Positions 14,788 to 47,862 of a DNA stretch of 64,000 nucleotides are shown in pieces; within the stretch, counting starts at the first letter, position 1; every line of letters starts with the position of its first letter. The stretch is from Octopus sinensis (lineage: Eukaryota): assembly GCF_006345805.1 (NCBI RefSeq), contig NC_042998.1, positions 158,844,001 through 158,908,000 of the forward strand, in the 5' to 3' direction. Both the position numbers and the translations under genes were made by a program. The notes under the pieces are model-generated. The model was not told the DNA's origin and did not search any database. It was given only the letters and a program-made list of their open reading frames with translations.

Positions 14788-15383
14788 CTTTTCTACTCTA
14801 GATGATTCTTTTAAAGTCTAGGCACAAGGCCTGAAATTTGAGGGGAGGGGGCCAATCGATTTGATCGACCCCAGTACGCAACTGATACTTAATTCATCGA
14901 ACCCGGAAGGATGACAGGCAAAGTCGACCTCGGCAGAATTTGAACTCAGAATGTAAAGACAGACGAAATACCTCTTTCTTTACTACCCACAGGGGGCTAA
15001 TCACAGAGAGGACAAACAAGGACAGACAAACGGATTCAGTCGATTATATCAACCCCAGTGCGTAACTGGTACTTATTTAATCGATCCCGAAAGGATGAAA
15101 GGCAAAGTCGACCTCGGCGGAATTTGAACTCAGAACGTAGCGGCAGACGAAATACCTATTTCTTTACTACCCACAAGGGGCTAAACATAGAGGAGATAAA
15201 CGAGGACAGACAGACGGATTAAGTCGATTATTTCGACCCCAGTGCGTAACTGGTACTTAATTTATAGACCCCGAAAGGATGAAAGGCAAAGTCGACCTCG
15301 GCGGAATTTGAACGTAACGACAGACGAAATACTGCTAAGCATTTCGCCCGGCGTGCTAACGTTTCTGCCAGCTCGCCGCCTTA
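14788..15383 (-). mobile_element. Trimeric Nin/Deu-domain SINE (~184-bp internal period) with 15-bp TSD
   Basis: Three tandem GCCTTTCATCCTTTCGGGG-like cores; ACTTATTAGA(C/T)GATT at 14773-14787 and 15384-15398. Confidence 0.85.
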
Positions 15384-41833: not shown

Positions 41834-42150
41834 TAGCGTAGGTCTGTGGTCTATCTCTGGGTGAAAAAGGTTGCTGCTGGAAGGAAATATGTGTGGCAGC
41901 AGGATTTACTCTTTGCCATACCTGCGAAAAAATCAGATTGGTTGTCGGAGAATTTCTCCGACTTCACCAGCACCAATTTCTGGCCTCCTCCTTACACTAA
42001 TTGTAATCCCATGGATTACTATGTGTGGGGCGTGGTTGAGAAAATATACATACTGTCCTACCTTCCCACAAAGGCCGAGCTGGTGACCAAATCAAGGAGG
42101 TATTCGGCGATCTTCCTAGAGGCACAGTCAGAAACGCATGCACAAGTTTC
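41834..42150 (+). mobile_element. maT/DD37D-like transposase fragment, truncated by the HHR repeat
   Basis: WVKKVAAGRKYVWQQD..FWPP..NCNPMDYYVWGVVE..VRNACTSF; same family as 11320-12180. Confidence 0.8.
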
Positions 42151-42393
42151 AGTAGCGACACTTGCTGGGTCTGACTACGCTGCATTGATAAAGGGCAACA
42201 ACCCTGAAACATGTCTGCAGATGTCTGACCAGCAAGGTGAAGCGGCTGACCTCCCCTGTTCGAAGATTGTAATGGACGCAGGTTCGTGTGTCATATAGCT
42301 AGCTAGAGGCGATGGTCTCTTGGAGCTAATCAGCGACAGCTTTAGTCTTATATTTATGGACTGCCATATTAGTTTGGCGATAAATATTAATAT
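42147..42393 (+). repeat. 247-bp HHR-bearing direct repeat, copy 1
   Basis: Near-identical to 46513-46759 (offset 4366). Confidence 0.92.
42180..42220 (+). ncRNA. Type I hammerhead ribozyme, U3-A8 core variant
   Basis: ctgca-TTGATAA-aggg(caacaa)ccct-GAAA-catg-TC-tgcag; stem I extends via 42161-42171 with 42227-42236. Confidence 0.7.
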
Positions 42394-42521
42394 CCAGGAA
42401 CGCTGTCGTAATCTCCTTTAGAGAGACTTAGTAATTTTAATATATCTGTTATTGAAAACAAGTGGATGTATTCCACGGAAACTAAGTAAATAAAATCTTC
42501 GAACAGACAGTCAGTAGTGAC

Positions 42522-43360
42522 GGCGTGGTGAAGTTTTTTAGATTTTTTCTCGAAAATGGAATCCCAGACGTATGCGGGTGCAGCAGGCAAGGGCCTGGTT
42601 GCAAACGAATTGCAGTTAGAAGAAGTCATCGTCGAGAAGGAGACGTTGAACAAGTATTTCGTTAGCTTGAAGAAGGAGGGTGTTCCCCGACGAGACGCGT
42701 CTCAGAGTCGTGGTGGAGGGGAGACCCCCAGTGTGTCACAAATGCAAAATAAGAGGCCACATGAAGGATGTGTGTCCGCTGAGAGAAATACAGGAGAAAA
42801 CGATAGCACTGGAGACTTCAACGAATGAGTTGCAAGATGCGTGTGAGGAGGAGGGAGAAATCGTTCCTACAGATAATGCGGAAAGTGGTAAAGAGTTGGA
42901 GAAAGAAAATAGAAAAAGAACGCTGGTGGAATCACCACCTAAAGAACAAAAAAAGAAGAAGAAAAAAGCGAAAAACAAGATTACTGACGAGAAGGAAAAC
43001 CGAACGGGAGAAGAGGATACAAAAGCAGAAGTGAGTGAGCCGGTTAAAACCAACAATAGAGGAAGAATGGATGAGAAATTTGGCAGAGCAGTTGAAAGCT
43101 CGTAAGAGAGGAGGAAGACCCAAGGGAAAGAAACACAGAGTGGTAATGTTATACGACAAGGACAAAAATATGGAAAAGATGTTGCCAGGTAGGAAAGACT
43201 TAATTAGAGTAAATTGTAAAATTGTAATTTAAATGAAACTGCGAGCTTTGGGGGGCTCGTAAGCCGTTCCATCTAATCCATTTCAATTCATAATTTTCGA
43301 TTTTTTTACTTTATGTACCCCACGTCCTCTTAATTCGGGCCTTAGTGCCTATAATAAAGA
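42522..43360 (+). mobile_element. ORF1-only retroelement unit 1 (5'-truncated, internal deletion, intact CCHC)
   Basis: ATG 42556 MESQTYAGAAG; deletion join at ~42680; CHKCKIRGHMKDVC; ends AATAAAGA. Confidence 0.8.
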
Positions 43361-43375
43361 TTTCAGTAGCGACAC

Positions 43376-44837
43376 CCGCTTGTTTTTGTTTTTGGTGACG
43401 GAGATTTCTGATTGCGTTATTTGTGTAGCTGTATTTTTTTGGCGGCGGAAAAATTTTGACTACGTTATTGTGGTGGCGCGTTTCGTGAGATCGAATCCGG
43501 CGGTGGAAGTTGTTACGGCGTGAAAAATTTTATTGAGATTTTTTTCTCGAAAATGGAAAGCCAGACGTATGCGGGTGCAGCAGGCAAGGGCCTGGTTGCA
43601 AACGAATTGCAGTTAGAAGAAGTCATCGTCGAGAAGGAGACGTTGAACAAGTATTTCGACAGCTTGAAGAAGGAGGGTGACTGTGTGAAGGTCACACCAC
43701 CAGAAGAAGCGGAAGAAGCGGAGAAACGGATTATAACGTACAAAACATGGAGCGTGACTTCGAAAAAAATAGAAGTGGCACCGATAGAGGAAGTTGAATG
43801 CTGTCTTAAAGGAATAGAAGGAGAGTCTACCTACTATAACAGAGGTAGAAAGTTCGCAACAGTGGTCGTCCACTTTAAAAGTGAAGACGAGGCGAAGAAG
43901 AACGCAACGAAAATTTTAAAAACTGATAGATGGATGTTTACCAAGCTACTGCGGGAAAAGGGCAGTCAGAATAAGAATAAGCAAGATTTCGCCCGAACTA
44001 AATATGGAAAGGATTTTAGCAGCAGTGGTGTTTAATTGCAAGGAAAACGTGGAAATGTTGAAAGTCGAAAAATCAAAAGATGTAAGTGGTGGGGTTATGC
44101 AGTGCAGGCGTTAGTCCACATTACAATGCCTGACCTGTATAACATCCCGGAGGAGTTGGTGTTCCCCGACGAGACACGTCTCAGAGTCGTGGTGGAGAGG
44201 AGACCCCCAGTATATCACAAATGCAAAATAAGAGGCCACATGAAGGATGTGTGTCCGCTGAGAGAAGTACAGGAGAAAACGATAGCACTGGAGACTTCAA
44301 CGAATGAGTTGCAAGATGCGTGTGAGGAGGAGGGAGAAATCGTTCCTACAGATAATGCGGAAAGTGGTAAAGAGTTGGAGAAAGAAAATAGAAAAAGAAC
44401 GCTGGTGGAATCACCACCTAAAGAACAAAAAAAGAAGAAGAAAAAAGCGAAAAACAAGATTACTGACGAGAAGGAAAACCGAACGGGAGAAGAGGATACA
44501 AAAGCAGAAGTGAGTGAGCCGGTAAAACCAACAATAGAGGAAGAATGGATGAGAAATTTGGCAGAGCAGTTGAAAGCTCGTAAGAGAGGAGGAAGACCCA
44601 AGGGAAAGAAACACAGAGTGGTAATGTTATACGACAAGGACAAAAATATGGAAAAGATGTTGCCAGGTAGGAAAGACTTAATTAGAGTAAATTGTAAATT
44701 GTAATTTAAATGAAACTGCGAGCTTTGGGGGGCTCGTAAGCCGTTCCATCTAATCCATTTCAATTCATAATTTTCGATTTTTTTACTTTATGTACCCCAC
44801 GTCCTCTTAATTCGGGCCTTAGTGCCTATAATAAAGA
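43376..44837 (+). mobile_element. ORF1-only retroelement unit 2
   Basis: 1477-bp period with unit 3; bounded by TTTCAGTAGCGACAC at 43361 and 44838. Confidence 0.85.
43553..44704 (+). pseudogene. Frameshifted ORF1/gag-like protein (RRM-like, zinc knuckle C->Y, Lys/Glu-rich tail)
   Basis: Frameshifts at ~43938 and ~44083; YHKCKIRGHMKDVC; KKKKKK basic tract. Confidence 0.75.
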
Positions 44838-44852
44838 TTTCAGTAGCGACAC

Positions 44853-46512
44853 CCGCTTGTTTTTGTTTTTGGTGACGGAGATTTCTGATTGCGTTATTTG
44901 TGTAGCTGTATTTTTTTGGCGGCGGAAAAATTTTGACTACGTTATTGTGGTGGCGCGTTTCGTGAGATCGAATCCGGCGGTGGAAGTTGTTACGGCGTGA
45001 AAAATTTTATTGAGATTTTTTTCTCGAAAATGGAAAGCCAGACGTATGCGGGTGCAGCAGGCAAGGGCCTGGTTGCAAACGAATTGCAGTTAGAAGAAGT
45101 CATCGTCGAGAAGGAGACGTTGAACAAGTATTTCGACAGCTTGAAGAAGGAGGGTGACTGTGTGAAGGTCACACCACCAGAAGAAGCGGAAGAAGCGGAG
45201 AAACGGATTATAACGTACAAAACATGGAGCGTGACTTCGAAAAAAATAGAAGTGGCACCGATAGAGGAAGTTGAATGCTGTCTTAAAGGAATAGAAGGAG
45301 AGTCTACCTACTATAACAGAGGTAGAAAGTTCGCAACAGTGGTCGTCCACTTTAAAAGTGAAGACGAGGCGAAGAAGAACGCAACGAAAATTTTAAAAAC
45401 TGATAGATGGATGTTTACCAAGCTACTGCGGGAAAAGGGCAGTCAGAATAAGAATAAGCAAGATTTCGCCCGAACTAAATATGGAAAGGATTTTAGCAGC
45501 AGTGGTGTTTAATTGCAAGGAAAACGTGGAAATGTTGAAAGTCGAAAAATCAAAAGATGTAAAGTGGTGGGGTTATGCAGTGCAGGCGTTAGTCCACATT
45601 ACAATGCCTGACCTGTATAACATCCCGGAGGAGTTGGTGTTCCCCGACGAGACACGTCTCAGAGTCGTGGTGGAGAGGAGACCCCCAGTATATCACAAAT
45701 GCAAAATAAGAGGCCACATGAAGGATGTGTGTCCGCTGAGAGAAGTACAGGAGAAAACGATAGCACTGCAGACTTCAACGAATGAGTGGTGAAGAGTTGG
45801 AGAAAGAAAATAGAAAAAGAACGCTGGTGGAATCACCACCTAAAGAACAAAAAAAGAAGAAAAAAAAAGCGAAAAATAAGATTACTGACGAGAAGGAAAA
45901 CCGGACGGGAGAAGAGGATACAAAAGCAGAAGTGAGTGAACAGCTAAAAGCAGTTGAAGAATGGGACAGAAAATTGAAACAGCAGTTGAAAGCTTGTAAG
46001 AGAGGAGGAGGACCCAAGGGAAAGAAACACAGAGTGGTAATGTTATACGACAAGGACGAAAATTTAGAAAAGATGTTGCCAGGTAGGAAAGACTTAATTA
46101 GAGTAAAGTTGACCCCAGGAATATTTGATAAATATTGGAAGGCGGTAATCGTGGAAAAAGAGTCAGTGAAGAAAATGATTGAATATGAAGCATTTGAATG
46201 GTTATATTTACGTTATGACACCTTACCAGCTGATGTGAATCAGGATGGCCTGATGGAGTATATAACAGATGAAAGACCAGACTATACAGAGTGCCCGACG
46301 TAGCAGAGTAATATATGTATTTGTAAAATTGTAAATTGTAAAATTGTAATTTAAATGAAACTGCGAGCTTTGGGGGGCTCGTAAGCCGTTCCATCTAATC
46401 CATTATAAATATCCATTTCAATTCATAATTTTCGATTTTTTTACTTTATGTACCCCACGTCCTGTCTTGTAATGTCCCCTCTTAATTCGGGCCTTAGTGC
46501 CTATAATAAAGA
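44853..46512 (+). mobile_element. ORF1-only retroelement unit 3 (complete 3' end)
   Basis: Bounded by TTTCAGTAGCGACAC at 44838 and 46513; 3' UTR hairpin and AATAAAGA; no RT or endonuclease. Confidence 0.85.
45030..46303 (+). pseudogene. ORF1/gag-like protein, reconstructed length ~440 aa
   Basis: Frameshift at ~45418 and 56-bp deletion at ~45787 relative to unit 2; ends ..DERPDYTECPT*. Confidence 0.75.
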
Positions 46513-46759
46513 TTTCAGTAGCGACACCTGCTGGGTCTGACTACGCTGCATTGATAAAGGGCAACAACCCTGAAACATGTCTGCAGATGTCTGACCAGCA
46601 AGGTGAAGCAGCTGACCTCCCCTGTTCGAAGGTTGTAATGGACGCAGGTTCGTGTGTCACATAGCTAGCTAGAGGCGGTGGCCTCTTGGAGCTAATCAGC
46701 GACAGCTTTAGTCTTATATTTATGGACTGCCATATTAGTTTGGCGATAAATATTAATAT
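46513..46759 (+). repeat. 247-bp HHR-bearing direct repeat, copy 2 (HHR 46546-46586)
   Basis: Same TTGATAA/GAAA core; ends in (TA)n like PLE 3' ends. Confidence 0.92.
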
Positions 46760-47862
46760 ATATATATATACACGTACATATATCCATGTACGGATGTATG
46801 CATGTATGTATATGCTAGTATCCGTATGCCCTCAAAAATGACAATATTTTAAAAGGAATAAGCCGAAACTGGTATCTAATAAGCGTATCGACATTACATA
46901 CATTCCGTATATTTGATACAGACTTCTTCTTACAAATCATCTTATATTGTCAGGCTAGTCTCTGATCAGAGTTCACTTACTAAAAGTGGTATATTATGTC
47001 AATAATCAATATCGCATATATTCTCTCTCTCTATATATATATTAATATAAATACTATTATGACATGCCCACTATATATTACTGGGAAACCAACATTACAT
47101 TATATAATTTTATTCAATATAGGTTCATAGCATATATTTCTTATGGTTAATATGAGTAAGTTTCCATTTAAAATATATATTACAATCTTCATGTACTAAA
47201 ATATCCGCTTTCGTAATGTGCATATATATTAAACATTCCAAACATTGTATATAAACATTGCTGGAAATAATTTACACGATATTTCATTGAGATTTTTCTT
47301 TCGTGTTTTTACTTGTTTATTTGTTTTTTTTTCTTCATGAACATCGGTCGAATGACGCATTAAACTGAAAACGGTGGTGAAGCTTTTGTCAGGTTCCCAT
47401 CTATGGGCTAAATAGATTTCCCATCGGTAGAAGTGCTCTTGGTATATTTGACAAGCCGTGGGGAAAGTATCTCTTCTACAAGACAGATATTCTGATATGA
47501 AACTTTCAGTCAAAATAGTACCAGTCATCTTGCACTGCTTGTCACTGAAAACTACTATGGTGGGTGAAAGAGTTGCAAAATTGTTGTACAAGCTTTTGTC
47601 ACGTAAATCCAATGATGCATTCATTAATGCGAGAAGCGACCATCATCTGACAAGAAGCGGTAATCATCATATTTATACATGTGTGTGTGTGTGTGTGTGA
47701 GTGCGCGTGCGTGTGCATGTGTATGTGCGTGTTTACTTCAATGTATTAATCCCGGGAAAAATTTTCAATGTATATTACTAGATATTAAACAATAATGAAT
47801 AAAATACATGTTTTTTTATCTGGTTTGCAAGATTCTTAATGTGAATTCGTGTGTTGAAAGAA

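Follow-up and report, generated by a model that had tools for sequence, protein, structure and literature searches.

ORF1-only Tx1-type elements stacked at one site of a hammerhead retrozyme in Octopus sinensis, most likely inserted by the enzymes of a Tx1-like LINE

How do elements that encode no reverse transcriptase (RT) come to be stacked at one short site of a ribozyme-bearing repeat? The question is raised by a 64,000-nucleotide stretch of the Octopus sinensis genome (contig NC_042998.1, positions 158,844,001 to 158,908,000, forward strand), hereafter the window, whose first letter is position 1. Here, in a 2.7-Gb genome rich in microsatellites, a 247-bp direct repeat (42147-42393 and 46513-46759, 98% identity) encloses three units, and a (TA)n tract starts after 46759. 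The 15-mer TTTCAGTAGCGACAC occurs only four times in the window (42147, 43361, 44838, and 46513), the 11-mer TCAGTAGTGAC is located at 42511, and AATAAAGA stands immediately 5′ of every internal 15-mer, all as placed in a preliminary description of the locus. That description weighed two origins: repeated, target-specific insertion of an element with a single open reading frame (ORF1) into a hammerhead retrozyme or mini-Penelope-like element (PLE), or a composite, protein-coding retrozyme-like element copied by PLE RT. We hold with good confidence that the units are non-autonomous ORF1-only copies of Tx1 type, which occupy one site a short distance upstream of the retrozyme hammerhead, with target duplications of 14-20 bp, and were most likely inserted in trans by the endonuclease (EN) and RT of a Tx1-like long interspersed nuclear element (LINE) that uses the homologous site in sister retrozymes.

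The strongest evidence comes from the flanks of other copies. When the last 313 bp of unit 3 are used as a query and the best 30 loci tabulated, a retrozyme target begins within 2-6 bases of AATAAAGA in 29/30 (16 at target A, the family found in the window, 5 at B, and 8 at C), with one at another site. With one 362-bp retrozyme monomer as the query (2829 candidates, 40 scored, best 30 loci examined), units are present in only three loci, while the remaining 27/30 are empty. The 3′-flank comparison suggested in the preliminary description thus gives units that are nearly always followed by the target and empty hammerhead repeats that far outnumber filled ones. Because 29/30 unit ends lie at the homologous retrozyme site and the LINE occupies the same site in sister retrozymes, the repeated-insertion model holds. 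Full-length unit copies have the spacer on their 5′ side and a target duplication of 14-20 bp, and older subfamilies join the retrozyme from a few to ~50 bases further downstream. One subfamily, ending in AATAAAGAGAAA (L252, L159, L164, L250), also joins further downstream, and in one case its junction falls within the hammerhead core, close to the cleavage site.

Within the window, the three independent insertions originally proposed were an over-count. Between positions 42789-44290 and 44268-45768 there are no substitutions and only three one-base indels, and because unit 2 is a near-perfect chimera of units 3 and 1, the stack is, judging from this alignment, two insertions (units 1 and 3) plus one duplication, real or assembly-made. 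It is possible, and compatible with the insertion model, that the assembly, and not a genuine tandem duplication, produced unit 2, although we think this the less probable case: a repeat of ~1.5 kb differing only by those three indels has the pattern of long-read consensus errors, whereas unequal crossover between units 1 and 3 would yield exactly such a chimera, and true multi-unit stacks are common elsewhere in the genome. The target-site duplication also needs redrawing, as it begins at TCAGT and the leading TT of the 15-mer is the end of the element. Unit 1 lacks its 5′ end and has lost ~470 and 220 bp internally. The single frame per unit is of ORF1 type, as the preliminary description had it, but no window unit retains it intact, and the knuckle reads CHKC in unit 1 only, with YHKC in units 2 and 3, such that the first cysteine of the CCHC motif reported for all three survives just once. 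The units contain no RT, EN, or integrase frame, as described.

We assign the host repeat to the metazoan non-LTR (long terminal repeat) retrozymes or mini-PLEs with a type I hammerhead, for which self-cleavage is predicted. The spacer, previously treated as a separate 118-bp segment, is present, but it measures 117 bp and is part of a 362-bp repeat that is very abundant in the genome. Among the best 30 loci, this repeat forms partial tandems with a 362-bp period and scattered 5′ ends, many with inverted 5′ copies or arms, and its 3′ ends fall at positions 247, 301, or 306 within (TA)n. Truncation at the 5′ end, inverted 5′ copies, and microsatellite ends are described as PLE hallmarks (PMC8557442), and metazoan non-LTR retrozymes have been tied to the pseudo-LTRs (pLTRs) of PLEs in a 2026 preprint (bioRxiv 10.64898/2026.07.22.740005). 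In several loci the 5′ end lies at positions 1-5, which would fit a start site but is favoured by the query, and we do not count it.

The hammerhead, which the preliminary description had recognised, is assigned by motif and covariation, as an Rfam search gave no hammerhead match. The window motif comprises stem I (CTGCA/TGCAG), a TTGATAA core, stem II (AGGG/CCCT), GAAA, a palindromic stem III, and a GTC site, and the 86- and 85-nt hammerhead segments have fold z-scores of -2.9 and -2.5. TTGATAA is conserved in 38/38 family-A motifs and GAAA-CAT-GTC in 32/38; the U3-A8 core is a variant reported for PLE ribozymes (PMC4209133). Across 70 distinct motifs collected with a pairing-blind pattern, 4.6 of 5 stem I and 3.7 of 4 stem II positions pair, compared to maxima of 3.66 and 3.36 in 1000 shuffles, a test that is inflated by kinship among the 70 sequences. 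The stem sequences of families B, B′, and C differ from those of A yet still pair, and the four repeats are homologous (scores of 49-249 versus shuffle maxima of 35-48).

A protein search of the genome with ORF1 returns 95 scored matches, down to 52% identity, from which 40 loci were fetched along with the 3′ parts of 16 more. Of these 56, 33 lie in retrozymes (one via a LINE end) and 13 in a further target, repeat D. Intact frames near the ~440 aa anticipated in the preliminary description do exist elsewhere in the genome: we find 28, of 434-454 aa, and 26 of them have the CCHC motif. Between target groups, the ratio of nonsynonymous to synonymous divergence (dN/dS) of these 28 is 0.11-0.18 over the first 250 columns, and the copies at target A form one supported branch. 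Pfam and a word-indexed protein search return nothing for the unit ORF1, and an Atlas protein look-up gives CCHC/ZCCHC3-type leads only, but HMMER searches with representatives recover 305 unnamed relatives; zf-CCHC is found in 6/32 relatives. A structure model of residues 1-247 (pLDDT 83) has tandem RRM proteins as its best fold matches. From these comparisons, the units appear to be an old 1.7-kb ORF1-only family with an RRM-RRM-CCHC protein that is under purifying selection and has changed targets. One apparent ORF1-plus-RT element (L158) was rejected as an unrelated LINE inserted into a unit, and a pooled junction census, which mixes pattern-selected loci with tails of short interspersed nuclear elements (SINEs), is kept out of the rates given here. 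Two near-identical filled retrozyme loci with shared flanks lie 19.4 kb apart (L095 and L096, G000:C2:138.78 and 138.80 Mb), a segmental duplication or assembly repeat, and LTR-type elements lie inside or adjoin units at L082:4180-9060 and L089:1972-4830.

The putative helper is a 5.5-kb LINE with ORF1 and ORF2 and 15-18-bp duplications, which at target B lies directly against units within long flanks (L080, L085). Its ORF2 contains APE (PF03372), RT (PF00078), and zf-RVT (PF13966) domains, and its RT shares 35% identity with Xenopus Tx1L ORF2, scoring 236 bits to that protein and 144 to human L1 ORF2p in separate searches. Its ORF1 is related to that of the units (26% identity over 206 ungapped residues, E 3e-28), and it ends in the same terminal AATAAAGA, such that an RT-encoding LINE of the kind sought in the preliminary description is found at a homologous site. 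In 29 of the best 30 LINE loci, the 3′ end is at retrozyme B/B′. The remaining one is at +1 of a U2 small nuclear RNA (snRNA) gene in a tandem U2 region (L115:1862-2055, L200), with the B′ target as its 5′ leader; from the similar sequence, this copy looks like an off-target insertion. A relative with 88% ORF2 identity accounts for 1/30 junctions at target C, where no 5′ end was found within the 1.6 kb of sequence examined, and a second, more distant LINE family (60-79% ORF2 identity) is likewise found at target B. Three of the 5.5-kb LINEs form a head-to-tail array at one B′ target (L201-L203, G000:C6:92.14-92.16 Mb). At target C, tandem 1375-bp chimeras, in which the 5′ end and ORF1 come from a LINE and the 3′ end from a unit (L022-L024, L083-L084; G000:C1:194.61 Mb), are followed by a LINE that is cut off by a PLE-like element.

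All of these targets lie a short distance behind a TATA-like box, which is 24-28 bp 5′ of the duplication at A, B, B′, and C. Repeat D, which is unrelated to the retrozymes and in which no hammerhead was seen, has TATAAAA 29-30 bp 5′ of the duplication and two CCAAT boxes. Furthermore, copies at new sites begin with bases of their source target (L200, L163, L146, L154); in the U2 copy (L200), the U2 duplication is followed by the B′ target. Because of these boxes 24-30 bp 5′ of all targets and the source-target leaders, the simplest reading is that element RNA would start at the start site of the host repeat and that the host promoter would drive transcription. Homology among targets A, B, and C and the likeness of the U2 site to B′ leave D as the sole case that bears independently on start-site targeting. 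It is conceivable, and we propose it only tentatively, that the Tx1 lineage homes on RNA polymerase II starts rather than on one sequence, its targets being multicopy repeats with a TATA box ahead of the start (promoters of retrozymes, one LTR-like promoter, and U2 +1), as a LINE counterpart of Ty3 targeting. For the ORF1-only partner, the retrozyme would then supply a promoter, a 3′ end made by the ribozyme, and a second vehicle driven by PLEs, making three tiers of parasitism in which two RTs copy one RNA. Repeat D itself, the target of one unit subfamily, is ~1.2 kb long (L157, L169, L148, L244, L246; for example, G000:C2:79.60 Mb), with a fixed 5′ end TGTAGCAATA, 2-7 copies of a 53-bp unit, and possible TG..CA ends; it is LTR-like and unclassified. 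The unit subfamily found at D (tail in L148) and the abundant SINE of this genome (tail in L244) have closely matching 3′ ends, which suggests that the SINE may use the same LINE machinery as the D-target units.

Several results weigh against the reading in which the Tx1-like LINE mobilises units transcribed from retrozymes. No autonomous LINE is found at target A, where two pattern searches gave 23 junctions, each of them the tail of an ORF1-only element, and the 3′ tails of units and LINE are weakly alike (score 45, with 9/500 shuffles as high). These two points, together with the second LINE family at target B, are what would favour a different Tx1/L1-type family, undetected or extinct, as the source of the enzymes; we consider this unlikely, as the LINE found spans targets B, B′, and C and shares stacks with units. 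Further, the 5′ UTRs (untranslated regions) are not alike (117/500 shuffles as high), an unbroken ORF2 is found in 0/14 LINE regions, in which decay and consensus error are not separable, and 6/56 protein-hit loci are at other sites, while 4 gave no 3′ end. An autonomous PLE with a matching pLTR was not found in a weak search limited to fetched loci, which contain two PLE-like frames, neither linked to the repeat. Lastly, DNA sequence is the sole basis for the promoter use and start sites given here. A further alternative is that the units derive from an ordinary LINE, either as 5′ fragments or by recent deletion, and are kept where they are by chance; it draws on the existence of a Tx1-like LINE with a related ORF1 and on the chimeric LINE-5′/unit-3′ repeats at one locus. 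We regard this as extremely improbable: in the units, the ORF1 stop leads straight into a 3′ UTR of their own, a cognate ORF2, named in the preliminary description as a refuting case, is found in 0/40 fetched loci and 0/16 3′ parts, the two ORF1 proteins share only the low identity given above, and dS is saturated with low dN within the ORF1-only family.

The composite origin, in which a protein-coding retrozyme arose once and was copied only by PLE RT with the 15-mer as a mere repeat boundary, is largely refuted and very unlikely on its own. PLE-type inversions and (TA)n ends do surround filled loci, and some composites have been recopied whole: a single deletion junction, which spans retrozyme and unit and has lost part of the spacer and the target, recurs on three chromosomes (C16, C1, and C9), and at L136 and L076 inverted or 3′-ended retrozyme pieces are joined to unit interiors between (TA)n tracts. 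Such junctions require joint copying of retrozyme and unit, most likely by PLE RT, and joint copying is therefore a second step rather than the origin. By contrast, a single composite origin does not account for stacks without a hammerhead between units and with unlike neighbours or full LINEs (LINE then unit in L080, unit then LINE in L085, and units with 86, 73, and 69% identity to the query in L092). Nor does it account for one ORF1 family in four target types, one of them (D) lacking a hammerhead, or for off-target copies with their own duplications, as the unit does not always move with the hammerhead repeat.

Under the insertion model, the element likely borrows the enzymes of its full-length relative and probably uses the host repeat as a promoter and second vehicle. 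Most retrozyme copies spread without a passenger, with ends of PLE type, and junctions of units and LINEs lie 24-30 bp behind a TATA-like box. Having no promoter of its own, as the 5′ leaders at new sites suggest, the element would be transcribed from the host-repeat promoter with its start at the target. Purifying selection is consistent with an ORF1 protein that packages its own RNA, with ORF2 borrowed. Because each insertion restores the target, elements and LINEs stack, a structure seen directly, for which the enzyme would be that of the LINE. Finally, some filled retrozymes would be recopied whole, likely by PLE RT.

The closest known system is that of Tx1-Mar and SINEU-3 in Mariner-N4_AMi of crocodilians, where a common target inside a transposon receives tandem insertions that sandwich the duplication (PMC4494074). 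As in that system, another transposon contains one target that is used both by a Tx1 LINE and by a non-autonomous partner. However, SINEU-3 is an snRNA-derived SINE, whereas the octopus partner encodes an ORF1 under selection, and in place of Mariner-N4_AMi the target is a hammerhead retrozyme or mini-PLE able to recopy its passenger, and its site follows closely on a TATA-like box. For the crocodilian Tx1, of which two families target LTR elements, transcription driven by the host element was also proposed (PMC4494074). According to the summary in that source, Tx1L in Tx1D of Xenopus and Keno in U2 snRNA are likewise site-specific Tx1 LINEs; the octopus LINE is of the same APE-RT type, with one copy in a U2 gene, but its target is a retroelement with a ribozyme rather than a piggyBac element as for Tx1L, and its U2 copy is at +1. 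The unit works like HAL1 (half-L1), a non-autonomous ORF1-only LINE derivative of mammals (as summarised in PMC5753468), in having ORF1 alone, its own 3′ UTR, and selection on the ORF. It is not a HAL1 member, as its ORF1 is a tandem RRM plus CCHC protein related to a Tx1-like LINE ORF1 rather than L1-derived, and it is site-specific in an invertebrate host. HAL1 has a poly(A) tail at its 3′ junction, whereas the unit has none (AATAAAGA plus 2-6 bases, then the target). The host repeat shares with metazoan non-LTR retrozymes and PLE pLTR hammerheads its ~360-bp tandem form, type I hammerhead, weak palindromic helix III, U3-A8 variant, and PLE-type insertions (PMC7229834, PMC4209133, bioRxiv 10.64898/2026.07.22.740005); those are described as non-coding, whereas some octopus copies hold coding passengers of 1.7 or 5.5 kb. 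In a repeat annotation of octopus, L1-Tx1 and Penelope families are both listed, and the part consulted describes no nesting of this kind (PMC13282606); we found no description of Tx1 or ORF1-only elements in PLEs or retrozymes in the literature searched, a scope that did not extend to Repbase Reports, subscription papers, and supplements.

The features of the window are collected in Table 1. The whole cassette landed in a sequence at 41837-42146 that we take from its DDE motif to be a Tc1/mariner remnant, which is cut exactly at retrozyme position 1-3 and whose continuation was not seen 3′ of the cassette. The idea that part of the 247-bp repeat is resumed mariner sequence was rejected, as that sequence recurs in all retrozyme copies. 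Among contigs of four sequencing runs compared with 41900-43480, none spans the stretch, and the mariner-retrozyme junction is uncovered in 3/4 runs; in a run whose RNA origin is a guess, one 1594-nt contig covers a unit from 5′ to 3′ UTR, which is a weak hint. Elsewhere in the window, 14856-15313 holds 2.5 tandem copies of a 184-bp unit that resembles the common SINE.

Table 1. Features of the retrozyme cassette and its borders in the window
Feature	Position	Strand	Remarks
Presumed Tc1/mariner transposase remnant	41837..42146	+	decayed; frame WPP..DYYVW
Retrozyme/mini-PLE family A, one full monomer	42147..42510	+	247-bp repeat + 117-bp spacer; 362-bp period
Type I hammerhead core	42180..42220	+	stem I, U3-A8 core, stem II, GAAA, GUC; predicted cut after 42215
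TATA-like box TAAATAAAA	42487..42495	+	24 bp 5′ of target; predicted retrozyme promoter, putative function
5′ copy of target-site duplication TCAGTAGTGAC	42511..42521	+	predicted transcription start
Unit 1, ORF1-only element	42522..43360	+	5′-truncated; two internal deletions; end AATAAAGA
Target duplication	43361..43375	+	TT + TCAGTAGCGACAC
Unit 2, chimera	43376..44837	+	5′ = unit 3, 3′ = unit 1; ~1.48-kb tandem duplication or assembly repeat
Target duplication	44838..44852	+	
Unit 3, ORF1-only element	44853..46512	+	near full-length; T-rich 5′ UTR; 3′ UTR end AATAAAGA
Unit 3 ORF	45030-46303	+	frameshift-broken
Second retrozyme copy	46513..46759	+	target 15-mer; hammerhead 46546-46586; end at position 247 (common family 3′ end)
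(TA)n microsatellite	46760..46772	+	usual landing site of retrozyme 3′ end

These observations add hammerhead retrozymes and mini-PLEs as a new target class of target-specific LINEs, and a long-lived ORF1-only Tx1 derivative under purifying selection as a new class of partner. As the transcription of metazoan retrozymes is poorly known, it is useful that the junctions mark their likely promoter and start site, which makes both testable. PLE machinery, if it is the enzyme involved, can carry coding passengers inside retrozymes. Should it prove true that start sites rather than sequence guide targeting, this would be a new rule for APE retrotransposons and may be of interest for safe-harbour insertion.

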